Position numbers and translations under genes: made by a program. This document shows, piece after piece, positions 1-61,861 of a stretch of DNA of 64,000 nt. The stretch comes from a virus. Location of the stretch: positions 1 to 64,000 of the IMG/VR virus record IMGVR_UViG_3300037657_000053. One strand, given 5' to 3'. Below the pieces are notes generated by a model, which saw only the letters and a list, made by a program, of their open reading frames with translations, was not told the DNA's origin and searched no databases. The number at the start of each line of letters is the position of its first letter. The first letter of the stretch is position 1.

Positions 1-82
1 CTGCCCCCCCCCCCCCCGCGAGCGGGGGGGGCTCGGTCGTTTGGAAACCCGGGTTTCCAAGGCTCAAGAAAAAAGTTCGCCC

Positions 83-168
83 CCTCGAAAAAAGTTCTTG
101 ACCTTCCTGCCTCGATAGCGCATAACAGAATCATCAGGGCAACGGAGCCCGAAGGAAAGAGAGAGAAC
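83..168 (+). promoter_or_regulatory. Sigma70-type early promoter and leader, copy 1
   Basis: TTGACC (98-103), 17-nt spacer, CATAAC (121-126), A-tracts upstream; block duplicated at 1371-1457. Confidence 0.75.
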
Positions 169-465
169 ATGAAGACCGCGACGGAGCCGACGATCACTTT
201 CACCTCGAACGGTCTCACGATCGAGAATATCGAATCCGAGCGTATTTCTCCTGCTTATGCGCCCTTCGAGACGGTGTTTCGGAAGACGGCCACGATTGCG
301 CCTTCGGCGGGCGATCCCGATCGGCTCAACATTACGATTCGCACGACTCGGAATGCTGTTATTACGGGAGTTCACATCTTCCCCTTCAATTCCTCGAATC
401 GCTCGATCGTGGAGCATTTCTTCGGGGTCGACTTGGCGACAAAGCTCTTCGAGCTCTTTGCTTAG
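169..465 (+). CDS. Hypothetical early protein
   Basis: 98-aa ORF directly after the promoter and a purine-rich RBS. Confidence 0.7.
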   Translation: MKTATEPTITFTSNGLTIENIESERISPAYAPFETVFRKTATIAPSAGDPDRLNITIRTTRNAVITGVHIFPFNSSNRSIVEHFFGVDLATKLFELFA

Positions 466-496
466 ATCGCTTTTCTGTTCAAAGGCGGGTGAGATC

Positions 497-1003
497 ATGG
501 CGCGATTCGTGAACATTGAAACTCGAGAGCTCGAAGGTTTGCTCGAAGAGATCGGCGAAGCCGTGACTCGTTGCGGGGGTTCCTATCGGTGGAGTGTGCA
601 GGGAACCGAACGACTCTTCGTGATCGCGGTTCAACCTCGCCCGGGCTTCGCCCGAGAGGTGAAGGTCTTCACGACACTCTCGGCCGGGGCGAGCGAGGTT
701 CGGGAGTGTGGAGCCGACGCGATTCGAGTGATCCCAGGGGCTCTCATCGACGAAACCTTCAAGCCGCTCTCGGGGGGCGTGAAGGTTCTTCGGACGGCTC
801 CGAGGGGTGAACATCGGGCGCGCGTTGCATTCTTCCTCGGGCGGCTCAAGGGGATCATTCGGCAAGCCTACAAAGAAGCCGGTTCGGCTCGGGCTTGTCC
901 GGTTTGCGGTTCTGTCATGGTCGAGAGGAAGGGGCGGAACGGCGCCTTCCTCGGTTGCTCGGGTTTCCCGGGTTGTCGACATACTCAAACCATCGGGCGG
1001 TAG
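497..1003 (+). CDS. Protein with C-terminal topoisomerase-type C4 zinc ribbon
   Basis: CPVCGSVMVERKGRNGAFLGCSGFPGC; start moved to ATG 497 after GGTGAG. Confidence 0.75.
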   Translation: MARFVNIETRELEGLLEEIGEAVTRCGGSYRWSVQGTERLFVIAVQPRPGFAREVKVFTTLSAGASEVRECGADAIRVIPGALIDETFKPLSGGVKVLRTAPRGEHRARVAFFLGRLKGIIRQAYKEAGSARACPVCGSVMVERKGRNGAFLGCSGFPGCRHTQTIGR

Positions 1004-1060
1004 TTCGGGGCTCTCAGGAGGGCTTCTCGCCCCCGGAAAAAGGGTTCGTGAGGTGAAGCC

Positions 1061-1366
1061 GTGATCAAGCTAGGGGAGATTGAAGGGGCCCGGGAACGCG
1101 ACGATCTCAACTCGACCGATCGAGCTCTCATCGCGACCTTCGACGTTCTTCGCCCGAGGTTCGGTGCGATGATCGCCGAAGAGCGAGCGAGGAACCTCGT
1201 TTGTGGTTTGATTTACTGCGAAGGCGAGCCCCCTCGAGAGCTCGTGATCGAAAGTCTCATGGTGATTCGGCGACATACCTTCGGGCCGATCGAGCTCGCC
1301 GATGAAGAGTTAGAAGAGCTTGCCCGAGAAATCATTGAGAATTTTCGCCCCCTCAAACTTTTTTAG
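1061..1366 (+). CDS. Hypothetical protein
   Basis: GAGGTG RBS before GTG start. Confidence 0.65.
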   Translation: MIKLGEIEGARERDDLNSTDRALIATFDVLRPRFGAMIAEERARNLVCGLIYCEGEPPRELVIESLMVIRRHTFGPIELADEELEELAREIIENFRPLKLF

Positions 1367-1370
1367 CTCA

Positions 1371-1457
1371 CCTCGAAAAAAGTTCTTGATCTTTCTCTCT
1401 CGATAGCGCATAACAGAATCATCAGGGCAACGGAGCCCGAAAGGAAAGAGAGACGAA
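1371..1457 (+). promoter_or_regulatory. Sigma70-type early promoter and leader, copy 2
   Basis: TTGATC (1386-1391), 17-nt spacer, CATAAC (1409-1414); 43-nt block 1399-1441 identical to 111-153. Confidence 0.75.
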
Positions 1458-1904
1458 ATGGAAAACCACGAGAGCCACAAACTGACCGGGATCGACGCAA
1501 TCTTCAACTTCATCCTTGGCGGGATCGCGATCTTCACGATCGTGAACACCCTCACCGGCCGCCGATTCACCTTCAAGGTCACGAAGAAAGATGTCGGCGA
1601 CGGGAAGACCCTCTTCTTCGTCGGCGTTCTTTCCGGCCCCGACAACGGCGCCGATTACAACTTTCTCGGAACCATCTTCGACGACGGTGTCTATCGTCAC
1701 GGGAAGAAGAGCCGAATCGGACAAGACGCAATGAGCGCAAAGGCGTTCGCTTGGCTCATGGGGCGGCTCGAGACTCGCACTGATCTCGGCCCGGTCGAAT
1801 TCTGGCACGAGGGGCGTTGCGCCCGTTGCGGTCGTCGGCTCACGACCGTTGAGAGCATCAAAAGCGGTTTCGGTCCGGTGTGTCTCGAGAAGCTCGCCGC
1901 GTAA
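1458..1904 (+). CDS. DUF6011-like zinc-binding phage protein
   Basis: C-terminal GRCARCGRRLT..ESI..GFGPVC motif. Confidence 0.75.
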   Translation: MENHESHKLTGIDAIFNFILGGIAIFTIVNTLTGRRFTFKVTKKDVGDGKTLFFVGVLSGPDNGADYNFLGTIFDDGVYRHGKKSRIGQDAMSAKAFAWLMGRLETRTDLGPVEFWHEGRCARCGRRLTTVESIKSGFGPVCLEKLAA

Positions 1905-1918
1905 CGGCGACCGGGGGG

Positions 1919-1952
1919 AAAAGGGGGCCCTTCGGGGCCCCCTTTTCTTTTT
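1919..1952 (+). terminator. Rho-independent terminator
   Basis: AAAAGGGGGCCC-TTCG-GGGCCCCCTTTT followed by a T-tract. Confidence 0.9.
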
Positions 1953-1956
1953 CTGT

Positions 1957-1985
1957 TTGACAATTTGATCGGCGGCCCGTATAAC
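1957..1985 (+). promoter_or_regulatory. Sigma70-type promoter
   Basis: TTGACA, 17-nt spacer, TATAAC. Confidence 0.8.
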
Positions 1986-2004
1986 AGAGACAAGCGGTGA
2001 GACA

Positions 2005-2337
2005 ATGCCCCCACGAAAAAAAGTGAAGAATTCCACCCCCGCCCCCGCCCCCGAGGTGAAGTCGTCTCACGGCGGAAGGCGCGAAGGCGCCGGTCGGAAG
2101 CCAACGGGCGGAATGGCGATGAACACCGGGATTTATATTCGTTGTTCAACAGAACAGAAAGAAGCTCTCGGCGCCTTCGTGCGAGAGCTCTCGAAAGCTC
2201 GCGAAGCTCAGGACTTGCCGAAAGTCGATCTCTCGACTTGGCTTCGAGAGCTCGGGTTGAAGCATAGTGGGAACGAGGAGTTCGGGCTTGCCGCGCAAGC
2301 CCGGAAGGCGGCCGAAGATCTCGGCTCGATCGTGTGA
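2005..2337 (+). CDS. Small putative DNA-binding protein
   Basis: HGGRREGAGRK motif followed by a ribbon-helix-helix-like segment (IYIRCS..QKEAL). Confidence 0.65.
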   Translation: MPPRKKVKNSTPAPAPEVKSSHGGRREGAGRKPTGGMAMNTGIYIRCSTEQKEALGAFVRELSKAREAQDLPKVDLSTWLRELGLKHSGNEEFGLAAQARKAAEDLGSIV

Positions 2338-2345
2338 GGTGAATC

Positions 2346-2918
2346 GTGGAAGGAAAGGGGCTTGATTTGTTCGTCGTCGACGACGTTCTCCCCGACCCCC
2401 CGCCCGACCCCCCGGCCGAGAAGTCGAGGGTCGAACGGTCCTTCGGGCCTTGTGTGGTGTGTCACATTCCAGGCGAACTCGTTCATGCCTTCGACGAACG
2501 AGTCTATCGGGACGGCGCTTGTCCCGATTGCTTGCTTCACCGAACGAGCGAGCTCACGACCGAATACCGGCTCGACTCTCGGATCATGGCGCCCATGGTC
2601 TTTGTCGCCCGAGCTCTTCGAGGTGAAGAACCCTTCGCTTCGGTCCTTCGGGCCGCTGACTCTCAGAACCCCGAGAAGGTCGAAGCGACCTTGAAGAAGT
2701 TCGGGGGTGAACTCGTTCGAGATCGTCAAGAGGTTGAGCTCGAACAAGCTCGCTCGATCCTTCGTCGACAGGGGTTTCTCTCGACGGGCGGGGGGAAGCC
2801 GAACAACAAGCAACGGCGAGCGGCGGCGGCGATAGCCCGCCGTGAAGCGAGACGGGCTCTCAGAGCGGAGAAGCGGAAGGCCCGGGGCAACGGGGCCCCG
2901 AAGAAGCGGAAGCCTTAG
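2346..2918 (+). CDS. Hypothetical protein with two CxxC motifs and basic C-terminus
   Basis: CVVC...CPDC; GAGGTG RBS. Confidence 0.6.
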   Translation: MEGKGLDLFVVDDVLPDPPPDPPAEKSRVERSFGPCVVCHIPGELVHAFDERVYRDGACPDCLLHRTSELTTEYRLDSRIMAPMVFVARALRGEEPFASVLRAADSQNPEKVEATLKKFGGELVRDRQEVELEQARSILRRQGFLSTGGGKPNNKQRRAAAAIARREARRALRAEKRKARGNGAPKKRKP

Positions 2919-2952
2919 AGGGGCGTTCTCGCGCAAAGGGGAAGGGGTCACC

Positions 2953-3591
2953 ATGACGAAGAATACGATGAAGTCGGCGACGATCATCATAATCGTTGTC
3001 GCGATCGGGCTCGGGGCGATCGCGGGGGTGATCTATGGGGTGACGACTCACCGAGAGGCGACCTTCGCGGAAGGGGCGGCCGAATGGCCCCTCGAGAGTC
3101 TTCCTCTCGGGGTTACTTGCTCGGGCTACACTCCCGAGCTCGGAGCGCAGTGTCGCACTGTTGAACGAGCCTTCGGCGCCTTCAATGATCGGGTCGGCTT
3201 CAAGCTCTTCCTTTGGGGGGCGCGAGAACCGGTTGTCTTCGTTACGGTTGGGGTTCCGAGGAATGCCGCTTCCGACCCTACGGGCAATGGTCAAGACGGA
3301 GAGGGGGCGCTCTATCACAACGGCGAGAACACCGGGCTCTTCTCTCGAGGGGACGTAGCTCATCGGTGCGAGGTGAGAACCTCGAACACCGGCGACGATT
3401 CAACTCTTTGGGTTGTGAGCTACCATGGCGCCGGTCATTGTGTCGGGCTCGGTCACGATCCGGCCGACTATTCGATCTCGGTCATGAGAGAGGTTCAACC
3501 CGACACGATCGCCGAAGACGGCCCGGCGAAACTTCCTCACCTCACCGATTCCGACCGGGCCGCCGTTCGAGCTCGCTACATGCGACAGTAA
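2953..3591 (+). CDS. Membrane-anchored matrixin/metzincin-like protein lacking the catalytic Glu
   Basis: N-terminal hydrophobic helix; HGAGHCVGLGH followed by SVM (Met-turn position). Confidence 0.65.
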   Translation: MTKNTMKSATIIIIVVAIGLGAIAGVIYGVTTHREATFAEGAAEWPLESLPLGVTCSGYTPELGAQCRTVERAFGAFNDRVGFKLFLWGAREPVVFVTVGVPRNAASDPTGNGQDGEGALYHNGENTGLFSRGDVAHRCEVRTSNTGDDSTLWVVSYHGAGHCVGLGHDPADYSISVMREVQPDTIAEDGPAKLPHLTDSDRAAVRARYMRQ

Positions 3592-3648
3592 ACCCGAGTT
3601 TCCATGGGCTCGGGGATCGTTTATTCTCAGAAACGGAAGGGGTCAATC

Positions 3649-3972
3649 ATGTCGTCGAAAGCAAGATACAACCTTCGGCTTCGGATCTTCGAGCAACCGA
3701 TCGCGAATCCGAAGACGCTCGAAGAATCCGAGCGGAATCGAACCCCGATCGAGCTTACGATCCCTCCGACGGATCGGGTGATTCGCGGACGTAACGTCGA
3801 CGTGGTTCGTCGTCTCGCTCGTGATTACGCCGAGAAGACTTTGAAGCGTCGCGTTCGCTCGGTCTCAATGGGCCCCGAGGGGCTCTCGGTCGTGGTATAT
3901 GGTGAAGGCGTCAACCTTCTTTCGGGTGCTCCGGTTTCAGCAAAGTCACTTACGAAGGGGCTTCCCCGATGA
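3649..3972 (+). CDS. Hypothetical protein
   Basis: AAGGGG RBS; stop overlaps the portal start. Confidence 0.65.
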   Translation: MSSKARYNLRLRIFEQPIANPKTLEESERNRTPIELTIPPTDRVIRGRNVDVVRRLARDYAEKTLKRRVRSVSMGPEGLSVVVYGEGVNLLSGAPVSAKSLTKGLPR

Positions 3973-6068
3973 ATAGCCGAAAGAAGAAGGCGACCCGTCC
4001 GATTCGAGAGCCGTTCCGAGTTTCCAATTTGAGCGACGAGATCGCTAAGGAAGAAGACAAAGAGGGGGCGTTCTTTGGCGACGCTGAGAGAGGATTTGAT
4101 GAACTCACCGAACGCGGTCTCAATGATCGCTTTCCTCTGGTGAAGGCACACTTCCTAGGTTCCGATGGTTCAAACGTCAAGCCGATTGAAGAACGATCCT
4201 ATGACGAGAGGATCTTTTCTCGAGAGGGTGCTCTCTCACCTCCATACTCGCCCGAGGTTCTTTGCAAGATTCATGAACATTCAAACGCCTTGCGGCAAAA
4301 CATCGACGCCTATTGTGTGAATATTGATGGGAATGGACATCGGTTCGATCCGGTGATCGATCTCGAAGCCGACGAAGCCTTTGAGAAGGTTCGCGATGCA
4401 ATGTTCATCGATCGGATCTCCATAAGCGATGACGAGGGGAAGGGCGAGACTCCTGATTTTCCGAGCGACGAGGAAGTTGAAGCCACGATCGATGAGATGG
4501 AAGATGAGATGAGACTCGAGAAGGCTCGTGTTGAGACCTTCTTTCGTTTTTGTTGTCTCGACGAGAGTTTCATCTCTCTTCGCAAGCGGACCCGGCAAGA
4601 TCTAGAGATCATGGGGAATGGATTTTGGGAAGTGATTCGAGATGATTCGGGATCTCTTGTTCAATTTACCTATATTCCCGGTTTCACTTCCCGGCTTATG
4701 CCCCTTGATTCTTCGTTGGTTGAGACGACGACGAGGATCAAGCGAACTCCGATATCGTTTCAAAATCTCAGGGTAAACCGTCGCTTTCGTCGATTTGTTC
4801 AAGTGTTCGAGGGCGCGCGAGTTTTCTTCAAGGAATTCGGCGATCCTCGGATCATGAGTTCTCAAACCGGGGAGTATTACAAAGATGTCGATGCTCTCGA
4901 GAAGGAAGAGGGAAAGGGAATCTCGCAAGCAACCGAGGTGATTCATTTCTCGATACACTCTCCTCGATCGGCTTATGGTATTCCCCGGTGGATTGGAACC
5001 CTTCTTGCGGTTCTCGGCTCGAGACAAGCTGAAGAGGTCAACTTCCTCTATTTCGAGAACAAGTCGGTTCCGCCGCTCGCGATTCTCGTTTCCGGAGGAA
5101 CTCTCTCGAAGGATTCGGCGAGCGGCTTGCAAGATTACATCAAGACACACCTCAAGGGTCGACAGAATTTTCATAAGATCCTGGTGATCGAGGGGGTTTC
5201 TTCGTCTGCCAGTCTTGACGGCCAAGCCGGTCGAATGAGAATCGAAATTGTTCCTCTTACAGGAGCTCAACAAAAGGACGCTCTCTTTCAGAGCTATGAT
5301 GAGCGGAATATCGACAAGATCGGAATGAGTTTTCGGCTTCCTCGACTTCTTCGAGGGGATATCCGTGATTTCAACCGGGGGACGGCAGAAGCCGCTCTTG
5401 AATTCGCAGAAATGCAAGTGTTCGCGCCCGAGCGAGAAGATTTCGATTGGTTCATAAATCGAAAGATCATAGCCGAACTCGGGATCAGATATTGGGAGTT
5501 TCGTTCTAATTCTCCCAATGTGACCAATCCGATTGATCTCGCTGAGATGATTTCGCAACTTGTGCGAGAAGCGATCCTCACCCCCGAGGAAGCTCGCGAA
5601 CTCGCGCAAGGTATTTTCAATCGCGACTTCAAGCGGATTGATGAGATCTGGACAAAGATCCCTCCGAAGCTCTTGATCTCCGGTATCCTGCCTGAGAACG
5701 TGGAAGGCTTCGACCTTCTCGAGCCGGATGAAAAGGAATCCGACGACGAGACAAGCGATAATGAGCTCGAAGATGTCGCCGAGAAGGTAACCATTGGGAA
5801 GCGGCTTCGAGTTCGTTCGCAACGTTTGAAACTCTCGAAGAGGTATCGCAAGGCGAATCGAGCCCGGGGGCTTCGGAAGCTCGCTCAAGATCTCGTCTCA
5901 CTTCGGAACGTTCTAGACGAAGCCGAGCGAATCGAAGCGAAGAAGAGTTTCAACATCTCGAAAGCCGAGCTCAACGAATCGGGCGATATCGCCGATATGA
6001 ACGTTCCTCGAGAGACGATCGAGGTTCCAGAAGCCGAGCTTGCTCGATTCTTCGAGGATCGGTCATGA
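3969..6068 (+). CDS. Portal protein (PBSX-like family)
   Basis: DLEIMGNGFWEVIRD, EVIHF....PRSAYGIPRW, YFENKSVPP, FRLPRLL motifs; first head gene. Confidence 0.9.
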   Translation: MNSRKKKATRPIREPFRVSNLSDEIAKEEDKEGAFFGDAERGFDELTERGLNDRFPLVKAHFLGSDGSNVKPIEERSYDERIFSREGALSPPYSPEVLCKIHEHSNALRQNIDAYCVNIDGNGHRFDPVIDLEADEAFEKVRDAMFIDRISISDDEGKGETPDFPSDEEVEATIDEMEDEMRLEKARVETFFRFCCLDESFISLRKRTRQDLEIMGNGFWEVIRDDSGSLVQFTYIPGFTSRLMPLDSSLVETTTRIKRTPISFQNLRVNRRFRRFVQVFEGARVFFKEFGDPRIMSSQTGEYYKDVDALEKEEGKGISQATEVIHFSIHSPRSAYGIPRWIGTLLAVLGSRQAEEVNFLYFENKSVPPLAILVSGGTLSKDSASGLQDYIKTHLKGRQNFHKILVIEGVSSSASLDGQAGRMRIEIVPLTGAQQKDALFQSYDERNIDKIGMSFRLPRLLRGDIRDFNRGTAEAALEFAEMQVFAPEREDFDWFINRKIIAELGIRYWEFRSNSPNVTNPIDLAEMISQLVREAILTPEEARELAQGIFNRDFKRIDEIWTKIPPKLLISGILPENVEGFDLLEPDEKESDDETSDNELEDVAEKVTIGKRLRVRSQRLKLSKRYRKANRARGLRKLAQDLVSLRNVLDEAERIEAKKSFNISKAELNESGDIADMNVPRETIEVPEAELARFFEDRS

Positions 6069-7132
6069 GCTCGCTTCTTGAAGAGAACGGACTGTGCGAG
6101 TGTGCTCGTCTTACCGAAGACCTTCTCGAGAAAGCCTTTCGTGTGAACGTTCGGAAGGCTCTTGATCCTCTCGATCCCGACGACTTTCTTGTAATATCGG
6201 CTCGTCTCTCGAGAGCTCTTGCGAATGTCTCTCGGGCAGAGCAGGGAGCGGCTCTCAAGGCGGCTCTCAATGTACTTGATGTCGATTGGGAGAACATGAC
6301 TCCTGCCGCACGTCGCGAGGTAATTCGTGCGGCCCGAGAGGTTGTCGCCGGTCTTCCTCAGAGGATCATTCCTCCGATCACGAGAGAGCTCGAGGTGAGG
6401 GGCTCTGCAATTGTGCGAGGGGCTCGTCGATCTGTAAAGGCTCGAACGGGGGCTTCGATCGGCGTGAATATGGCTCTTCAAGATCAACGGATCGTTGATC
6501 ATCTCGCTTCGAGTCAAGGCTTCTTCGTCACCAACCAATATATCGAGCGGGCCGAATTCTTCTCGGCTCGAGCTCGAAACATCGTCGCCGAAGGTCTCTC
6601 TCAGGGGCTCGGTCAAGATGAGATCGCACGAATGCTTCGGGCTGAGATTGGCAATGCTCTCGGTCCGGCTCGTTCGGGTCGCTATTGGAATTTGATCGCG
6701 AACGTCTTCGTGAATCGAGCTCGAACCTACGGGCAACTCGCGAGCTATTCTGAGGCGGGGATCGAGAGGTATCGCTTCGAGGCCATACTCGATGAACGCA
6801 CTACCGAACAATGTCGCATGTTGCACGGGCGAGAGTGGGAGGTTCGGCGTGGACTTCAACAGCATATCGACGTTGCCGGGTCACCCGATCCCCAAGCCGT
6901 GAAAGATATTATGCCGTGGTTCCGAACCGGGCGAGATGAAAACGGAGATCGGGTGATCTTCTCTCAAAACCAAGCCGGCGAGAGAACGATCATGGCAAGA
7001 ATTCTTGAACCTGGGATTGGTGTGAGAGATCGAATCGGTAGGTACGAAACGACGCGAGCACTCAATGAGATATCAGCCGTTCAACCCCCTCTTCACGGAT
7101 TATGTAGGTCCACGATAGTTGCATCTCTCTAA
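6065..7132 (+). CDS. Minor head protein (SPP1 gp7/MuF family)
   Basis: AILDERTTEQCRMLHG and terminal PPLHGLCRS; follows portal. Confidence 0.85.
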   Translation: MSSLLEENGLCECARLTEDLLEKAFRVNVRKALDPLDPDDFLVISARLSRALANVSRAEQGAALKAALNVLDVDWENMTPAARREVIRAAREVVAGLPQRIIPPITRELEVRGSAIVRGARRSVKARTGASIGVNMALQDQRIVDHLASSQGFFVTNQYIERAEFFSARARNIVAEGLSQGLGQDEIARMLRAEIGNALGPARSGRYWNLIANVFVNRARTYGQLASYSEAGIERYRFEAILDERTTEQCRMLHGREWEVRRGLQQHIDVAGSPDPQAVKDIMPWFRTGRDENGDRVIFSQNQAGERTIMARILEPGIGVRDRIGRYETTRALNEISAVQPPLHGLCRSTIVASL

Positions 7133-7196
7133 AGCGTTGGCAGTGTAATAATACGCGGGTTGGAAACCCGGGTTTACAACAAGGGGAAGCGAAGTC

Positions 7197-7613
7197 ATGT
7201 CGCTATCAATCAACCTTGCAAGGTTCACGAAGGGCGAGCTTGTGAAACTCGCCACCGAAGAGTGGCACGGGAGAACCGTATTTGCGATCATTGAAGCGAT
7301 CGATCAATCTTTCGAGAACGATCAAGTAATTCGACCGGTTCGCACGCAATCCGAGATTGAGCGACGGTTCGAGATCTGTATCAGGTGGTTCGTTGAGCTT
7401 CGGCGCGAACTTCATTGGTCGATCCCTCGAATCCTTGATGCTCTTCCGATGGCGCTCCGGTCGGCTCTCGACGGAATCCCGTTCAACCCCGACGAAGAGC
7501 GAGCGGCTTGGCACGGTGCGATCGGCCCCGAACTCGAAGTCGACGGTGAAGATTTGGTCGGTGAGGTTCCCAACGTGGTGGGGGCGATCGAGGCGGAAGA
7601 CTATCTCGATTGA
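7197..7613 (+). CDS. Hypothetical protein
   Basis: AAGGGG RBS; lies just after a palindrome copy. Confidence 0.7.
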   Translation: MSLSINLARFTKGELVKLATEEWHGRTVFAIIEAIDQSFENDQVIRPVRTQSEIERRFEICIRWFVELRRELHWSIPRILDALPMALRSALDGIPFNPDEERAAWHGAIGPELEVDGEDLVGEVPNVVGAIEAEDYLD

Positions 7614-8444: not shown

Positions 8445-8452
8445 GGCGAACC

Positions 8453-9970
8453 GTGCGCGCACGCCACCGAGCAACCGGTTGGGGCGATGGTGAAGAGGTT
8501 ACCGTCGATCCCAAAGAAGATATCAATTTTGATCAAGATCTTCCTTCGACGATCTCGAAGCGGAGACGTTTTCCTTCAACTTCCGATCTCGAAAATCCTC
8601 TCGGGGAAGGTAAGTATCGAGGAACCGATCTCGACTTCGACGAAGATCTTCCCGATTGCCGGGCGGTTGTGCAGATTGCGAAAGCGGCTCGAGAAGAAGA
8701 CGATCCCGAAAAGGTTCCTTTCCGCGTTCATCAGGGAGACAAAGTGGAAACCCGGGTTTCCACCCCCTCGCGCTTTCTACCTGTCGTGAAGGAAGCTTCT
8801 CGAGTCGATTTACCCGAGCTTGCGCCGGTCGTCCGTTACAATCGAGCTCTCGCAACGGCGACGATTCCAGTCGAGAAAAAAGCTATCCCCGAGCCGACTC
8901 ACGATCCGATCCCTGTCCCGACGACGGGTGAGGCGGGGGTTCGTATTCGGCAATTCGAGACGACTGTCGACTCGAAGGAAGAGCTTCTTCCATCGGTCCT
9001 CTCATGGGAAGCGGTTCGCAAGGGTGACATGCCCGAGCCGGGAACATCGGGGCTCCCCGAGAGTCTCGAGCAAGATGTTCCGCCAAAGTTCCGATTCTGG
9101 AAGTGTGACGATCCTTTCGATGCGAGAGCCGTTCGCGATGCTCTTGTGGAAGAGGGGTTGTTTGCGACTGAGACGGTTCGGAAGGTGAACGGAGAGTTGC
9201 GGCGTGCCGTCGTTGAGACTGTTCGGAAGTTCTTCCTCTCGCCGTCCTATGACCCCTCAGAGCCCGTTGAAGTTCCGCCCAACGTGAGACCCGTCGAGAA
9301 GGTTGCGAGCCTTCTCGAGCCCCTTCAGGGTCAACGAGACATGGTTCTCTTTGACGAGCAGATCACCGACGTTCTCGGGATTGACACGATTCTCGAGAAG
9401 GCAGGGGGTCTCGTTGCCGATTGGGTTGTCGCCGCTCGTGATTCTGAGCTCGTTCGGAAGGCGATCGGCGGGCCGGCGTTCAAGCTCAAGAGTCGAGCCG
9501 ATCTCGTGTTCGCCACGAACGCAACGATCGTGCGAGACGATCTCATCGAATGGGTTCAACTCGAACGCGCCGATGAGGTTCTCAAGTTCGCCCTTTCGGA
9601 AGGTCGAACGATCCCGATTCTCAAATCCAAGGAAGAGAGGATCGTTTATGGGATCGTTCTTGAGCCCGATGAAGTAGACTCGCAAAAAGACACGGTCTCG
9701 AAAGAGGAGATCGAACAAGCCTGTCACAAGTTCATGGAAGACTTCGGCGGTCTCGGCCGTCAACATCAAGAGCTCGTGAACGGGAAGCTCGTTCTTCTCG
9801 AGAACTTCATCGCCCCCGTTGACTTCGAGGTTGACGGGCAACCGGTGAAGGCGGGATCGTGGCTCATGAAAGAAAGAGTCGTCGATGATCAACTTTGGGA
9901 ATCGGTGAAAAAGGGAAAATACACCGGATTCTCAATCGGCGGTTCTGCCGTTCGGAAACCCGTCAAATAA
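8453..9970 (+). CDS. XkdF-like prohead protease with long N-terminal extension
   Basis: C-terminal EERIVYGIVLEPD..DSQ.D, GSW, LW..VKKG.YTGFSIGG; GTG start after GAGGCGAA. Confidence 0.8.
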   Translation: MRARHRATGWGDGEEVTVDPKEDINFDQDLPSTISKRRRFPSTSDLENPLGEGKYRGTDLDFDEDLPDCRAVVQIAKAAREEDDPEKVPFRVHQGDKVETRVSTPSRFLPVVKEASRVDLPELAPVVRYNRALATATIPVEKKAIPEPTHDPIPVPTTGEAGVRIRQFETTVDSKEELLPSVLSWEAVRKGDMPEPGTSGLPESLEQDVPPKFRFWKCDDPFDARAVRDALVEEGLFATETVRKVNGELRRAVVETVRKFFLSPSYDPSEPVEVPPNVRPVEKVASLLEPLQGQRDMVLFDEQITDVLGIDTILEKAGGLVADWVVAARDSELVRKAIGGPAFKLKSRADLVFATNATIVRDDLIEWVQLERADEVLKFALSEGRTIPILKSKEERIVYGIVLEPDEVDSQKDTVSKEEIEQACHKFMEDFGGLGRQHQELVNGKLVLLENFIAPVDFEVDGQPVKAGSWLMKERVVDDQLWESVKKGKYTGFSIGGSAVRKPVK

Positions 9971-14513: not shown

Positions 14514-14623
14514 TCTCATCTCTTCCTCGGTTCTGTAAACCCGGGTTTCCAATCTAGTTCGCGTCAAGTGGTAAGTTTGCTTCGACGTTGATAGACTCAA
14601 GACGACGACGGAGGAAGATTCCG

Positions 14624-15073: not shown

Positions 15074-15075
15074 CC

Positions 15076-19107: not shown

Positions 19108-19164
19108 TCGTTTCAAAAACCGGGTGATCTGTAAACCCGGGTTTCCACGCGCTATAGTGGGATC

Positions 19165-24479: not shown

Positions 24480-24521
24480 ACCGGTTCCCTGGTTTGGAAA
24501 CCCGGGTTTACAGGTGACACC

Positions 24522-28130: not shown

Positions 28131-28160
28131 GCTGGAAACCCGGGTTTACAAGGTGAAGTC

Positions 28161-33350: not shown

Positions 33351-33438
33351 TAGAACCTCGACATTGTAAACCCGGGTTTCCGCGCGAGTGACGCCGAAGA
33401 CGACTCGGGTTATAGTCGTTTGAAGGAAGGGGCTTCAA

Positions 33439-36536: not shown

Positions 36537-36576
36537 TAATTGTCTCGTGTAAACCCGGGTTTCCAAGAGGTATGTC

Positions 36577-43405: not shown

Positions 43406-43534
43406 GAGTCGATCCTTTCGTGGTTGTCCCGATTATCGGACGGTTGATCAACTTCTCGAGTGGTGGAAACCCGGGTTTACACTTGAAATGGTTTGACGAT
43501 GTGACATGCCTCGCCCATGTGATATGATTCAAGC

Positions 43535-44549: not shown

Positions 44550-44925
44550 TCTAGAATCGGGCCGCCGGTCCGCTTCTTCTCGAAGGCGTCCCCCTTGCGT
44601 CTTCGGTGTGGAAGTGAAATTTCCGGCGGCCCGATTGGTCTCCCCCCTAACAACCCCCCTCTATTCTCTTTCTAAGTTATAAACAACAGATTCTTAGATC
44701 TAAGAATCTAAGAGAATAATCAAATGTATAACTAAGAGGGTGTGACTCACGGTTGTCCTCGCTCAAAGAACCCTTCGGGTTCTTTTCGCTGCGGAAACCG
44801 AGTCACACCCTACGCGCACGCGCGCGAGGCGCGGCGGGGTGCCTCGAGACGAGAGAACACCGGAAAGTTGGAAACCCGGGTTTCCAAGACGATTCGCCTT
44901 GTGAGTTCGTGTCCGATAATCAGGT
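44550..44925. other. Structured non-coding region, candidate replication origin/regulatory hub
   Basis: 14-bp inverted repeat 44555-44636, AT-rich tract with 22-bp palindrome 44688-44709, hairpin 44765-44786, one dispersed palindrome copy, one promoter motif. Confidence 0.55.
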
Positions 44926-46851: not shown

Positions 46852-47435
46852 TCTCGAGGAAGAAAATCAAACCGGGAACCGCGTCGGTCGTTGCGGTAGT
46901 CTTGGAAACCCGGGTTTCCAAACCATTACAACTCGGTTTTCAACTCGACGATCTCAGAGAGAACAGGAAGAAGGCGGCGTTTGTTGATGCCTTCTTGAAC
47001 CACGGGCAGGGGAAGAGACCGACGAAGGGTAAGGTCGGGAGGGCGAAGGCGACCCCAATCGAGCTCGCCGTCGCCGAAGCGAAGAGGCGATCTCGTGAGG
47101 GCGATTGGTCGGGAGCGAAGGGGAAGGTATTTGTTGGTTTGTATGCTCTTTGCCATGAGATAGTTTATGGCGACGTTCCTCTTGAGCTCACCGAGAATCA
47201 AGAGCTCACGATCGGGGCCCGTATGGTGAACCGAGTTCTTCACGACTTCTTCGATGATGATCCCGACGCTCTTGTCGAGTTCATAAAATGGTCGTGGGAA
47301 GCCGAGAAGAGGAAAGAGTCGTGGGCTCTTCGCAACGGGATTAGTCGTCAACGAATGAGAGTGAGACTTCAATTCTCTGCTCGCTTGGTTCAAGATTATC
47401 GGACCGAAAAACAGAGAAGTGGACGTCGAAGGTGA
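46848..47435 (+). CDS. Hypothetical protein, possible initiator/helicase loader
   Basis: Directly upstream of the DnaB-like gene; contains a palindrome copy. Confidence 0.6.
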   Translation: MISRKKIKPGTASVVAVVLETRVSKPLQLGFQLDDLRENRKKAAFVDAFLNHGQGKRPTKGKVGRAKATPIELAVAEAKRRSREGDWSGAKGKVFVGLYALCHEIVYGDVPLELTENQELTIGARMVNRVLHDFFDDDPDALVEFIKWSWEAEKRKESWALRNGISRQRMRVRLQFSARLVQDYRTEKQRSGRRR

Positions 47436-53228: not shown

Positions 53229-53359
53229 GCCGATCGATCTGGTTTGGAAACCCGGGTTTCCAAGAAGAAAAAAGTTGACGGTCTCATAAAAAAGTTGAAA
53301 GCTAGTCCGATAATCATAAGGAAGCCGAAAGGGCGAAAGCCCGGGGAGAGAGAAAAAAA

Positions 53360-57510: not shown

Positions 57511-58107
57511 ATGGCAACGAGACGCAAAATCGGTTCCGGTGAAGAGAAGGACGTGCTCGAGACGAAGCCGTTTCAGGGTTCAAGCGAGCAGGACAATAAC
57601 TCGGTTTCCTACGCTGAACCGGGGATCGCTTGGGGCAATGTGATTCGAGACGTTCTCAGGATCGATAATCCGGCTTGGCTCGCGAAGCGATTGCGAGGCG
57701 AGCTTACGTTGAGCGACGAGGGGCGTTCTTCCTACGGCTCCCTTCTCGCTGCTCTCGACAGGTCGGCGAGGAATTACGACGACGCTTACATGCTCTATCG
57801 CGGGGCGAAGGTCGAGGAATCTCGATTCGCTCTCGAGCTCCGAGAGCGATTCGAGGTCATGAAGGAACACGCATCGTCTGAGTTGATGGACGAATACAAG
57901 GAGAAGAAGCGGCGGTCTCCGACGACCGAGGACATAGAAGATCGAATGATGTCGAGTTGGCCCGATGAATACAGGCACCTCAGAACAAAGGAAGCCGAAC
58001 TCCATGCGGCGGTGAGAAGTTTGGAAACGCTTGCGAAGGCGTGGTCGTCCAGGTGCGCCGATCTTCGAGCAATGGCCGATATGTTCACGGCCAGAAAGAA
58101 CGGGTGA
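57511..58107 (+). CDS. Helical protein, possible UvsY-like recombination mediator
   Basis: Coiled coil; position near RecA and SSB-like genes (inference). Confidence 0.5.
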   Translation: MATRRKIGSGEEKDVLETKPFQGSSEQDNNSVSYAEPGIAWGNVIRDVLRIDNPAWLAKRLRGELTLSDEGRSSYGSLLAALDRSARNYDDAYMLYRGAKVEESRFALELRERFEVMKEHASSELMDEYKEKKRRSPTTEDIEDRMMSSWPDEYRHLRTKEAELHAAVRSLETLAKAWSSRCADLRAMADMFTARKNG

Positions 58108-58111
58108 AGAC

Positions 58112-59461
58112 ATGGGTCTCGGATTGGCGAGCTTTCTCAACCACAACGAAGGGTCTGCTCGAAAATTTCTCAAGGACTGGAAGAAGAAGGGATCGATCGT
58201 GGTGTGGCTCTATACCCGAGCAGATATCGCTTGGGCTTCGTGGAATCATTCCTTTGTAGCATATGGAACCTATAAGAACGACAAGGACGAAGAGGTCGAG
58301 TGTCTCAAGTATCCCCGCTTTGTCTCGCCCGATCCCGAGGTGGTCCATCAGAATCAATACTTCCGCAACGAGGGTGACGATTCGATGCAAATACCACCGT
58401 CGCTCGATCCATTCCTTCGCCTTCGGGAATGGCTCCGACTCGATTGCGATTTGCCTCTCGATACCGTCATCTTCCGTTGGGAGAACCCCCACCCGAAGCC
58501 CGGGAAGAGCCCGATCATCGAATGGCAACGTGGGCACCTTGCCCGGTTGGTCGATCGTGGGCGGTACAACTTCGGTGCGTCGCTCGACACGAAACTTGAG
58601 TATTTCTTCGTCGTTGTCGACAACGAGAAACCACAAGATGGGGCCCAGATCGTTCGGGGAACCAAGCTTCTCGGAGACGTGATGAAGAAGGAGATCGGAC
58701 ATCAGATCGAGAGCGATGGTGAGAAGGGCAATCCGCTGATCCATCCGTATGCGTTCAAGTGGGTCTATGACGATTCGGCCGGTTCTCCGATGGATTCATA
58801 CCGCGCGTTTCGCTATAACGCGGCGGAACTCACACCGCAGATCCGCGAAGCGATCACGAGCTCCGAGTATCCCGATCCGTCGCAAGATTGCAAACCTCGG
58901 GCGGGCGACAAGGCGAAGATCCGGGCTGCCATGGAAGCTGCCGCACAAGTCGATCTCCCATGGGATCGACTCTTCGTTCCCGAGTGGGAAGACGAAGAAC
59001 CCGGCGATTTCAACTATGGTGCGAATGCGGGCTCTCAGGTGGTCTCTCAGGGCTCGGGAACCTCGGGGGGTGCCACGGGGCGGCCGGCTTCTCAGACGGG
59101 CTCTCAGGGGCCGTCTCGCGAACGGGAGAGCCATGCGGTGAGCGGCGCGCAATCTGCCCGTCGGAAGAAGGTCAACAAGCCCGAGCCCCCGCCTCCGAAT
59201 GTCGAGATGATCAAGTGCGATGACTGCGACACGATGCTTCGACCGGATCAAGCGAAGTGTCCGAATTGTGGAGCGGAATACGAGGTCGATTCTGAACCCA
59301 CCGTTTCCTCCAATTCGGTGCAACAGGAAACCCGGGTTTCCAACGGAACGACCGGAACGACCGGAACGACCGACGTCACATGCTGGTCTTGTGGTGGTCC
59401 CGTCGTGAAGGGAAGTTGCACGAATTGCGGGCTCGAAGCAGGAGACGAAATTCCGTTCTAG
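58112..59461 (+). CDS. Putative ssDNA-binding/recombination protein with C-terminal zinc ribbons
   Basis: SSB-like acidic end DEIPF; four CxxC motifs. Confidence 0.6.
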   Translation: MGLGLASFLNHNEGSARKFLKDWKKKGSIVVWLYTRADIAWASWNHSFVAYGTYKNDKDEEVECLKYPRFVSPDPEVVHQNQYFRNEGDDSMQIPPSLDPFLRLREWLRLDCDLPLDTVIFRWENPHPKPGKSPIIEWQRGHLARLVDRGRYNFGASLDTKLEYFFVVVDNEKPQDGAQIVRGTKLLGDVMKKEIGHQIESDGEKGNPLIHPYAFKWVYDDSAGSPMDSYRAFRYNAAELTPQIREAITSSEYPDPSQDCKPRAGDKAKIRAAMEAAAQVDLPWDRLFVPEWEDEEPGDFNYGANAGSQVVSQGSGTSGGATGRPASQTGSQGPSRERESHAVSGAQSARRKKVNKPEPPPPNVEMIKCDDCDTMLRPDQAKCPNCGAEYEVDSEPTVSSNSVQQETRVSNGTTGTTGTTDVTCWSCGGPVVKGSCTNCGLEAGDEIPF

Positions 59462-59564
59462 ATGCCGTTACGTCTTACTCTCCTACTTTTCTTTCTTTGA
59501 TTCTTCCTTGATTCTTCCTCACAAAACACGTTCCTCTCGTCCGATAATCAATCGAGAGGTGACA

Positions 59565-60809
59565 ATGGCAACGCGACGGAAGAAAGTCGTGAAATCCGAA
59601 GAAGAGAATGGTAATCACTTCGTCGAGTCGGCGTCGTGCGATGAAGAAGGGGATGAGGCTTTCTTCGATTCCTTGACCCCGTGTAGCGAAGAGGTTCTAG
59701 ATCGAATTCCGGCCGGTTGGTCAGGAGACTACATTGAAGCGGCCGGCAAACTTGAAGGTTGGGGTCAAGCTGGAGATGTTCTCGACGAGATCATTTCTGT
59801 TCGGACGGTTTTTCCCGATTTCAATCGAGCGACTCATGTAGGCGGGATTCCCGTTCGTCGAATTCATACGGTTCACGGTCCGACTCACGGCGGGAAGACT
59901 GCGTTTGTTCTAGGGCTCGTGAAGAGTTTCGTCGACGTGGGATATCTCGGCGGCTTCGTTGATGCGGAATTCTCGCTAGGGAAGGAATTCGGCGAAGAGA
60001 TCGTTTGCGACTTGCGGAAGAAGCCGAACTTTCTTGCTGTTCGTCCGGAGAACTATGAGGAGACGATCGAGAAGGTCGATACTTTCTTGGTTCGTGCTGG
60101 GAAGGTTCGAGACAAGTTTCCCGATGCGAAATCAATTCTTGTTGTCGATTCGATCAACAAGCTAGTTCCGAAGCGAGAGCTCGACAAGTTCCTGAAGGAA
60201 GGACAGATCAACGAGAAAGGAGCGGTCGAGCTCACGAAGGGGCATCATGGGAGATATCGTGCGGCTCTCAATCAAGCGTGGCTGGATCATCTCACCCCGC
60301 TCGTTGCCCGAGCGGATTGTGCGCTCATTCTGATCGCGCAAGAACGCGACGATCAAGACACTACCGACTTCTTCAAACAAGAATTCAAGGTGAAGGGCGG
60401 CGCGGCTCTTCTCTTCGACGCTTCGCTCGTGATTCGTGTGATGAAGAGTTCGCCCGTCTTCATCAAACCGAGTGACGAGAAGAAGAACGAGAACATTTGC
60501 GGATTCGGACATCGGGTGAGGATCTGGAAAAGCAAAGTCTCTCATATGGAGGGTCGTTATACCGATTGCATCTTTCATCTATCGAACGGGCGACTCACAC
60601 CGAAGGGGCTCGACATGGCGCGCGACGCGATGATCGTCGCGATCAAGGTCGGTGTGCTCTCGCAGTCGGGGGCGTGGTATTCGTATCGTGGTCGCCGAAC
60701 TCAAGGATTCAACAATATGCTTAGTCGTCTCGTCGAACGACCGGCTCTTCTGCAAGATTTGCTTGTCGATGTCAATTTCAAGATGGATCGAGAAGCGGGG
60801 AGAATCTAG
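59565..60809 (+). CDS. recA: RecA/UvsX-like recombinase
   Basis: GGIP, GPTHGGKT, DAE, VVDSI, GG.AL.F.AS, GAWYSY. Confidence 0.9.
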   Translation: MATRRKKVVKSEEENGNHFVESASCDEEGDEAFFDSLTPCSEEVLDRIPAGWSGDYIEAAGKLEGWGQAGDVLDEIISVRTVFPDFNRATHVGGIPVRRIHTVHGPTHGGKTAFVLGLVKSFVDVGYLGGFVDAEFSLGKEFGEEIVCDLRKKPNFLAVRPENYEETIEKVDTFLVRAGKVRDKFPDAKSILVVDSINKLVPKRELDKFLKEGQINEKGAVELTKGHHGRYRAALNQAWLDHLTPLVARADCALILIAQERDDQDTTDFFKQEFKVKGGAALLFDASLVIRVMKSSPVFIKPSDEKKNENICGFGHRVRIWKSKVSHMEGRYTDCIFHLSNGRLTPKGLDMARDAMIVAIKVGVLSQSGAWYSYRGRRTQGFNNMLSRLVERPALLQDLLVDVNFKMDREAGRI

Positions 60810-60811
60810 AT

Positions 60812-61081
60812 ATGTTCAACTATATCAAGCCGCGACCGTGGGGGGCTCTTGACTTCCTCGGTTCCATTCTTCTCGGGTTCTTGCTCTTTGTGCTCTTCAT
60901 TGCGGGGGGCTTGCGTCTTCTCAACGTGATCAGCGAGCTCGAAGAGGGCGCGTCCGAGTTCGCCTATCAAGCGGCCGTTCTGATCGTATGGTGTCTCGTC
61001 TTCAGAGGAATCTCGAATTCCTTCGTCCGTGGATTCAGACGACGTTGGCGAGAGACTCATGAGGAAGGGTGGTTCAGATGA
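60812..61081 (+). CDS. Small two-TM membrane protein
   Basis: Two hydrophobic helices. Confidence 0.6.
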   Translation: MFNYIKPRPWGALDFLGSILLGFLLFVLFIAGGLRLLNVISELEEGASEFAYQAAVLIVWCLVFRGISNSFVRGFRRRWRETHEEGWFR

Positions 61082-61830
61082 CAAGGATACTTCTAACGGC
61101 CGATTGGCACATCGACGCGGTAACGGGCGGTCTTCCTCGAGTTGATGAGATCGATCCCTTCGTAGAAGAGCTCAAGGAAGCGGTCATTCGGGAGAAAGTT
61201 TCTCATTTGATTCACATGGGAGATTTTTTTGACCCGGGCGGTATGCTCTGCTCGTTCTATACCGAGAAGGTGATCATGATTGTGAGCGACCTTCTCGCCG
61301 TCGATCGGCTCGACACGATCACCCTTCTCGCCGGCAACCACGACGTGATCGAGAGCTCTCGAGGAACCACAACGATCAGCCCGGTTGCCGCCGCATTCTC
61401 GGGCGAGCCGAGGGTCCAAGTCTTCGAGCAACCTTCGAGGTTCGTTCTCACGACTCAACCCGATCAGATCATTCGGGGGCTCGCCCTTCCCTACGTTGCC
61501 CGTGCGGCCTATCGAGAGGAAGCCTTTCCCGAAGCCGTGAAGGGGCTCTCAGAGCTTGGAGACTACCCCCTGATAGTCGTCGGTCACATGACCGTTCCGG
61601 GGGCTGTGCTCGGGTCTGAGAGCTCGGATATGCCACGGGGACGAGAGATCGATCTTCCGGTCTTCGAGCTCTCGAAGCTTCGTCCGGTTTTCATCGCGAA
61701 CGGTCACTATCATCGAGCACAAGTCACCGAATCGAACGTCGTGATTCCGGGCTCGCCTTTCCGCTTCACCTTCGGCGAAAGGAACGACAAGAAAAAGGGA
61801 TTCACGATTGTCGAGATCGTTCACAAGTAA
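61078..61830 (+). CDS. SbcD/Mre11-like metallophosphoesterase nuclease
   Basis: ADWH, GDFFD, GNHD, GHYH, PGSP. Confidence 0.88.
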   Translation: MTRILLTADWHIDAVTGGLPRVDEIDPFVEELKEAVIREKVSHLIHMGDFFDPGGMLCSFYTEKVIMIVSDLLAVDRLDTITLLAGNHDVIESSRGTTTISPVAAAFSGEPRVQVFEQPSRFVLTTQPDQIIRGLALPYVARAAYREEAFPEAVKGLSELGDYPLIVVGHMTVPGAVLGSESSDMPRGREIDLPVFELSKLRPVFIANGHYHRAQVTESNVVIPGSPFRFTFGERNDKKKGFTIVEIVHK

Positions 61831-61861
61831 ACCCGGGTTTCCAAGCTCGAAAGGGGAACAT

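Follow-up and report, generated by a model that had tools for sequence, protein, structure and literature searches.

Dispersed perfect palindromes in a clade of uncultured myoviruses, with a clamp-less ParB-fold protein as candidate reader

The closest described counterparts of the element considered here come from a plasmid, from bacterial chromosomes and from mycobacteriophages. The element is a 16-bp palindrome, G[GT]AAACCCGGGTTT[CA]C, dispersed along the 89,023-bp virus contig IMGVR_UViG_3300037657_000053 (55.5% G+C; G000 below), of which the first 64 kb (64,000 nucleotides) form the window. The IncP-1 plasmid RK2 carries 12 OB sites. On such a mobile genome of 60-100 kb, dimers of the ParB-family helix-turn-helix (HTH) protein KorB bind a short perfect palindrome scattered over the replicon, as is proposed here, and KorB-OB appears to us the closest working analogue. 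KorB is a global regulator with OB sites both near and far from promoters, and a CTP-dependent sliding clamp that works with KorA and doubles as a partition protein (PMC11790492). ParB on parS and Noc on its NBS sites likewise act as dimers on palindromes of 14-16 bp, those of Noc being dispersed over the chromosome. Noc sites share the CCCGGG centre of the G000 palindrome, and the GAAAC and GTTTC arms of the latter stand in the opposite order to those of parS.

Among phages, the closest precedent seems to be the dyad repeats of the Cluster O mycobacteriophages, unrelated Mycobacterium siphoviruses such as Corndog, whose genome of about 70 kb carries more than 30 copies of an invariant 17-bp palindrome, TGTTCGGNNNCCGAACA, mostly in short intergenic gaps or at the 5' ends of genes (PMC4351075). 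That account states that the repeats are absent from the host and predicts a dimeric binder; these phages encode a ParB-like domain protein, gp90, and in the same account the function of the repeats is left unexplained and no binder is proposed by comparison (PMC4351075). The likeness to G000 is functional and positional only, as the Cluster O repeat is of the 7-N3-7 type (TGTTCGG/CCGAACA) with an asymmetric 3-bp spacer, whereas the G000 palindrome is spacerless and of another sequence. Two further systems look more distant than these. The Cluster A stoperators of the L5 gp71 type are many short intergenic sites at which bound repressor stops elongation (PMC9283540). They are asymmetric, oriented with transcription and bound by the monomeric immunity repressor of a temperate phage, whereas those of G000 are perfectly palindromic, and the proteins scanned included neither an integrase nor an immunity repressor. 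The linear plasmid-prophage N15 has four dispersed SopB sites, the inverted repeats IR1-IR4 (PMC7205306); it too places a ParB-family protein on separate inverted repeats, but it has four sites and a full SopA/SopB pair, whereas G000 has about 23 sites, a candidate binder without a CTPase domain and no ParA among the proteins scanned.

A sequence-only reading of the window had described 16 dispersed copies separated by gaps of 1.4-6.9 kb (mean about 4.1 kb) and usually flanked by T and A, and this description holds. The pattern is exact at 15 of the 16 positions, with 0.00 expected from 100 dinucleotide-preserving shuffles, and the remaining site, GTAAACCCGAGTTTCC at 3588, has one mismatch in the 12-bp core; allowing at most one mismatch, the 12-mer has 16 matches in the window against 0.15 expected. 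The gaps run from 1405 to 6916 bp with a mean of 4119 bp, and T stands at -1 in 13 and A at +1 in 15 of the 16 window sites. A scan of the full contig, which the same reading had called for, gave 23 sites at up to two mismatches, together with a degenerate copy at 88992, in the last 32 bases, where the contig sequence is similar to its own first 75 bases. Measured against a random model, as had also been proposed, the spacing is more even than chance: its coefficient of variation (CV) is 0.45, where the null model averages 0.94 (P<5e-5 for uniform placement, P=1e-4 for random gene junctions). The CV is under the null mean in seven further genomes of the clade as well (8/8 with G000), even spacing being significant in G001, G002, G011 and G014 and not in G003, G016 and G018 (G and L numbers denote related genomes and loci compared with G000).

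Only five of the 23 sites lie deep inside called genes, though coding sequence takes up 82% of the contig (binomial P=4.7e-10), and the sites typically fall 2-29 nt past a stop and 10-57 nt ahead of the next start. The copies had been said to ignore module boundaries. They stand at junctions between stops and promoters or ribosome sites and at the boundaries of modules, with one always ahead of the replication module, so that the boundaries are not really ignored. Two copies (3588 and 61827) supply the TAA stop of the preceding open reading frame (ORF), as had been noticed. Of the claim that three copies inside coding sequences all read ETRVS, the frame stands for 8746, 46904 and 59326, but a fourth such copy, at 78726 outside the window, is in another frame, and agreement of the three is probably a coincidence (1 in 9). 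Moreover, the orthologues of the prohead protease are 246-395 residues long against 528 here and an in-frame GTG follows the copy at 8746 by 24 nt, and this copy may therefore lie upstream of the true protease start rather than inside the gene.

The related phages either keep the palindrome, or replace it with palindromes specific to their lineage, which answers the concern that it might not be conserved among them. The same 16-bp core occurs 7 to 21 times in each of G001, G002, G010 and G011 (exact-pattern scan of the viral collection), and G003 mixes it with GGAATCCCGGGATTCC. The G+C content of these core-sharing contigs is 63-72%, and at the nucleotide level they show no resemblance to the window (blastn with G001-G003); all that G001-G003 and G011 have in common with it is a syntenic replication module, at 25-45% amino-acid identity. 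Around the common core the flanks are lineage-specific yet palindromic, being TT..AA in G000, GATT..AATC in G002, where 18 of 18 copies are the same 24-mer, and GTT..AAC, AAT..ATT or GTC..GAC in others. The whole-genome relatives G014, G016 and G018, which have both structural and replication modules in common with G000 at 27-59% amino-acid identity, each carry a different palindrome: GTTCACCCGGGTGAAC in G014 (21 copies, 21/21 the same 16-mer), TGTGGCCCCGGGGCCACA in G016 (11 copies) and TTGTAACCTCGAGGTTACAA in G018 (14 copies). At several orthologous junctions each lineage has its own palindrome: G000, G016 and G018 have one upstream of the tape measure, G000 and G016 before the baseplate-wedge gene, G000 and G014 between the orthologues of the genes at 6065 and 7197, and G000 and G018 after the orthologue of the gene at 35832. 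Nearly every genome also has one at the start of the replication module; the junction of copy 12 carries one in G002 and G011 and two copies each in G014 and G016, and one lies just upstream of the homologue of the gene holding copy 13 in G001, G003 and G018. The whole site set of a genome thus changes together, which points to a co-evolving trans-acting reader. In a wider sample of 38 polymerase-anchored loci and five others, the 22 positive genomes or loci hold 19 distinct 14-bp cores. The even-length perfect palindromes are centred on CCGG or TCGA, with GTAC-free cores such as CCCGGG, CTCGAG, GTCGAC, CACGTG, GATC and GCGC. Relatives of the sheath gene (L001-L034) have neither the canonical motif nor a repeated 12-bp palindrome, so the trait does not track the structural module.

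As to whether the motif is an abundant repeat of the host, a search of 185,579 genomes of bacterial and archaeal species gave the exact 18-mer TGGAAACCCGGGTTTCCA in 14 stretches, all but one of them with a single site, where about nine would be expected on a uniform background by our own arithmetic. In five re-searched metagenome-assembled genomes (MAGs) of 3.4-9.4 Mb it occurs once or twice per genome, and an abundance of the REP/BIME kind was met in no bacterial chromosome of these 185,579 species, from which the true host may be missing. The 9.4-Mb MAG 'uncultured delta proteobacterium' (G005, contig 7, L096, 11765-14775) has exactly two copies of the 16-mer with CAT..ATG flanks, 3 kb apart and bracketing a phage-type DnaB gene; for the eight ORFs around both sites Pfam gave only DnaB and a SIR2-like domain, and the pair is probably a prophage remnant and a weak clue to a host. 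The other matches include one Myxococcales MAG and three Planctomycetota MAGs, equally weak as host clues.

We consider it likely that the sites are duplex-DNA sites of a phage-encoded symmetric reader, but palindromes so placed could also act in RNA, as processing hairpins, as 3'-end or stability elements or as factor-dependent terminators between cistrons. They lie shortly past stops and just before ribosome sites, they often precede promoters, the classic position of a terminator, and the consensus copies can fold, at -7.7 kcal/mol for the G000 20-mer TTGGAAACCCGGGTTTCCAA and at -10.5 to -11.9 kcal/mol for the forms in G002, G014, G016 and G018. Because the late-region copies must be transcribed and are positioned like processing or stabilising hairpins, such a role keeps some weight. 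Yet the 4-nt centre is self-complementary in all 19 cores, which a hairpin loop does not need and which favours duplex DNA, and the half-sites vary independently of each other. G000 sites with 0, 1 and 2 variant halves number 9, 11 and 3 against 9.1, 10.7 and 3.1 expected (P=0.90), and those of G016 number 6, 5 and 0; single-half variants in G000 fall on either side (seven left, four right), and in nine genomes the two halves differ from each other at 30 of the 37 sites that contain a variant half, which breaks the pairing without compensation, G003 showing a mild and non-significant excess of like halves (P=0.21). In the GTAAAC form, which makes up 15 of the 46 G000 half-sites, the fold falls to -0.8 kcal/mol, 0/23 G000 sites have the U tract of an intrinsic terminator (at least six T in the next 12 nt), and an Rfam scan of the window returned no family. 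The copy at 43465 stands upstream of two divergent promoter-like motifs, and a mere hairpin would not need identity of sequence among copies. We hold a role in RNA to be improbable, and still less probable that the palindromes are selfish or enzyme targets, that is, mobile palindromes or sites of a nuclease, methyltransferase or recombinase, such as the HNH endonuclease encoded in the window, homogenised by copying. CCCGGG is a classical type II restriction site, the copies are strikingly identical in G002 and G014, and the primase/helicase junction occupied by the HNH gene carries a palindrome in G011, G014 and G018 (none there in G000). Against such an origin, a site persists at orthologous junctions even as its sequence varies by lineage, the spacing is more even than random in all eight genomes by CV and significantly so in five, the proteins scanned include no transposase or RAYT-like gene, the presence of palindromes goes with that of the ParB-fold domain introduced below, and the sites are too short to encode anything.

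About 13 proteins are common to all palindrome-bearing genomes by profile search, among them the replication enzymes, a sigma-70-family protein (P0002), a protein of unknown function (P0003) and P0001, and it is P0001 that we cautiously favour as the reader of the palindromes. Its AlphaFold model (mean pLDDT 70, with block means of 87-95 over residues 211-330) predicts two helices and a CxxC...CPFC zinc ribbon (CPFCGDEG) in residues 1-85, followed by disordered acidic and Gly-Lys linkers, a putative ParB/Noc/KorB-type HTH domain at about 205-332 and a predicted beta-rich C-terminal domain at about 362-432. The best structural matches of the central domain are ParB and Noc entries (6t1f, 4umk, 6y93, 7ol9). 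Residues 207-332 align with ParB 6t1f at Z 11.5 (rmsd 2.4 A over 109 residues), with Spo0J 1vz0 at Z 11.4, with the DNA-binding domain of Noc on NBS (6y93) at Z 11.2 over 110 of 116 residues, with 4umk at Z 11.0 and with the KorB DNA-binding domain 1r71 at Z 6.8; the top 12 matches are all ParB or Noc, the first unrelated row has Z 7.9, and SopB aligns weakly to the model (Z 4.6-4.7). Foldseek placed P0001 with ParB-type structures at probabilities of 0.94-1.00 and E values of 0.09-0.6, and an Atlas look-up, taken for leads only, returned DUF3102 (0.89) and a ParB/RepB/Spo0J cluster (TM 0.43 on the query and 0.37 on that row). The alignments cover only the DNA-binding domain of ParB (6t1f 123-236), and the N-terminal ParB/Srx CTP-binding domain of ParB was not found in P0001. 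A homodimer predicted for residues 200-446 scored 0.71 against 0.00 for the best control, at a mark reached by 20 of 30 solved one-chain pairs and 1 of 23 solved single chains; at least 73% of the contacts recur between runs, pLDDT is at least 73, and the prediction supports dimerisation of P0001.

The palindromes also go with this domain across the clade. Counting as present a perfect 14-bp palindrome, not of low complexity, that occurs at least twice per sequence, they were found in 22 of 34 loci or genomes whose P0001 homologue has the DNA-binding domain and in 0 of 7 without it (Fisher P=0.0022), after two loci had been dropped in which the polymerase lies at the contig start and the upstream gene outside the sequence. 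In the complete 106-kb relative G017, in which 53 G000 ORFs find a match, the P0001 homologue has 227 residues and consists of the N-terminal, Zn-ribbon and acidic part only, and the complete genome has no over-represented palindrome of 10, 12 or 14 bp. Apparent repeats in G017 were set aside as pentapeptide-repeat coding sequence and as a TTACACTATAGGTGTAA unit confined to terminal early cassettes; at 100-6000 and 92-106 kb of that genome (L160, L164-L165), each pentapeptide-repeat gene is followed by TTACACTATAGGTGTAA in a repeated cassette. The complete 140-kb G019, related in the structural module only, has neither P0001 nor palindrome. In 31 of the 34 domain-positive loci, the gene directly before that of the ParB-fold protein encodes a sigma-like homologue. 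In the closest homologue, L148, the putative recognition helix is nearly the same (ISHTMAYNL against ISHTLAYNL) and so are the half-sites, GGAAAACC, GGAAACCC and GTAAACCC. Within the nearest subclade this helix shifts with the palindrome, ISHTLAYN going with GGAAACCC, IGRTLAYR with GTTCACCC, MKRESALH with TGTGGCCCC and FARESALS with TTGTAACCTC, and the similar helices MTPTNAYQ, MTPANAYS and MSPTNART go with the similar outer half-sites GATTGGAAA, GATTCGAAAA and GA.CGAAAG.

Several points weigh against P0001 as the reader, and with them gains the possibility that the duplex-DNA operators are bound by another protein: P0002, alone or with P0001, a small fast-evolving phage regulator, or a host protein. 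P0001 matches no Pfam family at E<=0.01, HTH_ParB and ParBc included, and its profile, run against the sequences of solved structures, gave no ParB match and only Zn-ribbon look-alikes; the Z values of 11.0-11.5 come from a model built on an 11-sequence alignment, and Z below about 13 is possible among helical proteins. Twelve domain-positive loci have no repeated 14-mer, most of them being short (9-23 kb) or having 12-bp or variable cores that the count misses (L148, L180), and the lineages compared are related rather than independent, L185, L188 and L204 looking like one. The sigma-like gene has nearly the same distribution, in 31 of 34 domain-positive and 0 of 9 domain-negative loci; the two genes part company only in L180 and L186, and the phyletic pattern thus fits P0002 almost as well as P0001. 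The helices of G001, G002, G003 and G011, which share the G000 core, are dissimilar to that of P0001 (FSRTYAER, MTPTNAYQ, VDPKHGYR and LLPNQAFD against ISHTLAYN), and over 22 lineages the helix, assigned by guess from the model, does not covary significantly with the half-site once the rest of the domain is controlled for (partial Mantel r=0.09, P=0.17). For P0002 it may further be said that GGAAAC presumably resembles the -35 box of extracytoplasmic-function (ECF) sigma factors, and that in G001, G011 and G014 many sites are followed, after 6-20 nt, by a conserved GGCATGA(T/C)-type element located ahead of start codons. The family scans covered only some 47 of the window proteins, Pfam giving nothing for P0001, P0003, the 57511 protein and six other small proteins. 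A sigma factor, however, reads asymmetric -35/-10 boxes as a monomer and not perfect palindromes of 16-26 bp, and L180 and L186 have the DNA-binding domain and palindromes with no detectable sigma-like gene within 10 kb. The profile searches gave no other DNA-binding candidate common to all palindrome genomes; P0003, which is also universal, was rejected, as its model is a helical bundle whose best PDB rows are Bcl-xL at a probability of at most 0.14, that is, no match. A host factor is made unlikely by the absence of multi-copy bacterial genomes, by the lineage-specific flanks and by the different palindromes of the closest relatives. On balance we think it unlikely that the binder is one of these, and of the phage-encoded dimeric binder of the ParB/Noc kind put forward from the sequence, the ParB/Noc fold, the predicted dimer and the co-occurrence speak for P0001, while the covariation expected of it is not significant.

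With P0001 as best candidate, we suggest that a two-fold symmetric phage homodimer would dock on the palindromes as duplex-DNA operators, each subunit reading one half-site, (T)G[G/T]AAACCC, and that the protein would combine an N-terminal helical and Zn-ribbon module with a C-terminal dimerising beta domain in place of a CTP-binding clamp domain. At some 23 sites, P0001 would decorate the whole phage chromosome at the junctions of gene blocks, about every 4 kb, and could govern transcription along the entire genome, as KorB does from its OB sites, whether it blocks or insulates read-through from one block to the next or assists the sigma-like factor encoded beside it. More speculatively, a dimer every 4-5 kb would hand the phage sigma-RNA polymerase on to the next block, or stop read-through, and the clamp-activated late transcription of T4 and the silencing by KorB would be functionally akin to such an anchored dimer. 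A transcriptional role is a tentative proposal drawn from position, as the sites follow stops, precede promoters and ribosome sites and always stand at the head of the replication module, and the gene of the candidate binder lies beside the sigma-like gene. It is weakened by the finding that only four of the 23 G000 sites are near the -10-like motif GTCCGATAATC, at variable distances of 18-43 nt, for which reason a fixed promoter element in G000 was rejected; autoregulation of P0001 was likewise rejected as a general rule, there being a palindrome just upstream of the P0001 gene in G000 and of the sigma-P0001 pair in G011, and none in G001, G002, G014 and G016. The sites may instead serve compaction or some other physical function that depends on regular spacing. 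In G001 (L064-L068), G011 (L118-L121) and G014 (L127-L132) many palindromes are followed after 6-20 nt by a conserved GGCATGATGGG or GGCATGAC element, which stands 5-7 nt before an ATG and looks like a -10 element driving leaderless mRNAs.

Partition, which the sequence-only reading had listed among the possible roles, is not supported: P0001 is without the CTPase domain, a ParA was not seen and the genes look like those of a lytic phage, all of which make it unlikely. No ParA-type family was found among the approximately 47 window proteins scanned, a scan outside which the small ORFs and the 64-89 kb region lay. The same features separate P0001 from the systems it resembles. Compared with KorB, it lacks the ParB N-terminal domain and a visible ParA partner, and has a Zn-ribbon N-terminus and a sigma-like neighbour; compared with ParB and Noc, it has no CTPase, spreading or membrane-binding module and no homology at the sequence level, and it belongs to a lytic-looking phage and not to a chromosome. 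Since it is without the family-defining CTPase, we file P0001 as possibly working like KorB or Noc, not as a member of their family, and clamp-like spreading is not supported.

The phage is a myovirus by PHROG and Pfam scans of the window proteins, with 90 of its 91 called genes on the + strand (codon-usage gene caller, contig), and its gene set looks lytic (Table 1). It belongs to a clade of uncultured myoviruses of 77-114 kb without a cultured relative in the phage collection of 50,697 records. Window positions 1-20000 had zero megablast matches in that collection, tblastn gave nothing above 34% identity for the sheath and zero matches for P0001, and only two Pol II-like matches, at about 30% identity, for the DNA polymerase, which is, judged by these matches, family-B-like. 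One sequencing run containing this stretch was listed, a DNA run labelled groundwater metagenome that may be its source, and there was no RNA run. Three further classes of intergenic signal occur besides the palindrome: early cassettes, the GTCCGATAATC motif and hairpin-plus-T terminators, of which the phage has canonical examples, e.g., at 1905-1950. The early cassettes, each before a different small gene, consist of an A-tract, the promoter (AAAAAAGTT)CTTGACC-N17-CATAAC, a conserved leader (agaatcatcagggcaacggagccc) and a ribosome site, and they lie at both ends of the contig, wrapping around them. GTCCGATAATC, present also in the relative L148, has 13 exact copies between 43 and 86 kb (11 +, 2 -), placed 5-45 nt upstream of ribosome sites or starts in the region of replication and nucleotide metabolism, and is a probable middle-class -10-like promoter element. 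The two contig ends (1-75 and 88950-89023) both have a C14...G8 hairpin, then a palindrome copy, degenerate on the right, and an A-tract, which hints either at a terminal repeat that has diverged or at an assembly that is circularly permuted. An AT-rich island at 62983-63913, which takes the 60-64 kb bin down to a G+C of 0.50, encodes a PAPS-reductase/QueC-like protein and may hold a laterally acquired DNA-modification gene.

Table 1. Palindrome copies, genes and promoter-like signals of the window.
Feature	Position	Strand	Form, context or source
Palindrome copy 1	43..58		GGAAACCCGGGTTTCC; after C14/G8 hairpin, before early-type promoter TTGACC-N17-CATAAC
Palindrome copy 2	3588..3603		GTAAACCCGAGTTTCC, 2 mismatches; TAA is the stop of ORF 2842-3591; abuts ATG 3604
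Palindrome copy 3	7162..7177		GGAAACCCGGGTTTAC; in 64-nt gap 7133-7196, 19 nt before ATG 7197; G014 has its own palindrome there
Palindrome copy 4	8746..8761		Consensus; in ORF 8384-9970 as called (ETRVS), or 24 nt before in-frame GTG
Palindrome copy 5	14535..14550		GTAAACCCGGGTTTCC; in gap 14514-14587, 21 nt past stop
Palindrome copy 6	19131..19146		GTAAAC variant; in gap 19108-19164, 18 nt before ATG 19165
Palindrome copy 7	24496..24511		GTTTAC variant; 10 nt before tape-measure ATG; G016 and G018 have their own palindromes there
Palindrome copy 8	28134..28149		GTTTAC variant; 11 nt before ATG 28161 (tail protein)
Palindrome copy 9	33366..33381		GTAAAC variant; in gap 33351-33438 upstream of baseplate-wedge gene; G016 has its own, 20 nt before the orthologue
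Palindrome copy 10	36549..36564		GTAAAC variant; in 40-nt gap 36537-36576; G018 palindrome 5 nt after the 35832 orthologue
Palindrome copy 11	43465..43480		Between divergent 42860-43405 (-) and 43535-44251 (+); 23 nt from minus-strand GTCCGATAATC
Palindrome copy 12	44870..44885		25 nt upstream of GTCCGATAATC (44911) and helicase 44926
Palindrome copy 13	46904..46919		In first 72 nt of gene 46848-47435 (ETRVS)
Palindrome copy 14	53246..53261		Between sigma-like stop (53228) and ParB-fold start (53360); 43 nt upstream of GTCCGATAATC 53305
Palindrome copy 15	59326..59341		Inside gene 58031-59461, 120 nt before stop (ETRVS)
Palindrome copy 16	61827..61842		GTAAAC variant; TAA is the stop of 61069-61830; 19 nt before ThyX-like in-frame ATG
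Early cassettes, near-identical	59-168, 1367-1457; contig 82.5-88.3 kb		Each before a different small gene
GTCCGATAATC, minus-strand copies	43441, 47404	-	
GTCCGATAATC, other window copies	44911, 46429, 53305, 57480, 59539	+	Six more copies at 67-86 kb
Portal	3969		PHROG/Pfam scan
Prohead protease	8384-9970		ORF as called, 528 aa; PHROG/Pfam scan
Sheath	20691		PHROG/Pfam scan
Tape measure	ATG 24522		PHROG/Pfam scan
Tail protein	ATG 28161		PHROG/Pfam scan
Baseplate wedge	33439		PHROG/Pfam scan
Helicase	44926		Head of replication module
P0003	46848-47435		Unknown, 195 aa
DnaB	47475		
Toprim primase	49035		
HNH endonuclease	50040-50480		Primase/helicase junction
Second helicase	50524		
P0002	52632-53228	+	Sigma-70-family (region 2), 198 aa
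P0001	53360-54700	+	Candidate binder, 446 aa
DNA polymerase	54778-57465		
UvsX	59508		
Phosphoesterase	61069-61830		ORF ending at the TAA of copy 16
ThyX-like gene			In-frame ATG 19 nt past palindrome copy 16
PAPS-reductase/QueC-like protein	62979-63917		

Dispersed phage palindromes were known from the Cluster O mycobacteriophages and left unexplained there. In the literature searched we found no account of this clade, of its 12-mer or of a system that combines a clamp-less ParB-fold protein, a sigma factor and dispersed palindromes, the 12-mer being judged by title and abstract and supplements lying outside the search. The clade offers for testing 19 palindromes in related genomes, a single strong candidate binder of a well-understood fold and natural knock-outs without both the DNA-binding domain and the sites, which make the role testable. 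That the sigma-like factor, the clamp-less ParB-fold protein and the even palindromes together form an undescribed way of running a large phage genome is a speculative reading to which we give rather little weight, and within this joint reading the specificity would, just as doubtfully, have changed at least 19 times inside a single clade. If the pairing of P0001 with the palindromes is true, the function of the repeats would be directly open to gel shifts and reporter assays, and the clade would hold a natural library of many orthogonal operator-protein pairs for synthetic biology. It would also extend the whole-replicon marking of ParB and KorB to a clamp-less protein in phages of the lytic type, and tie such a ParB-fold protein to a phage sigma factor.

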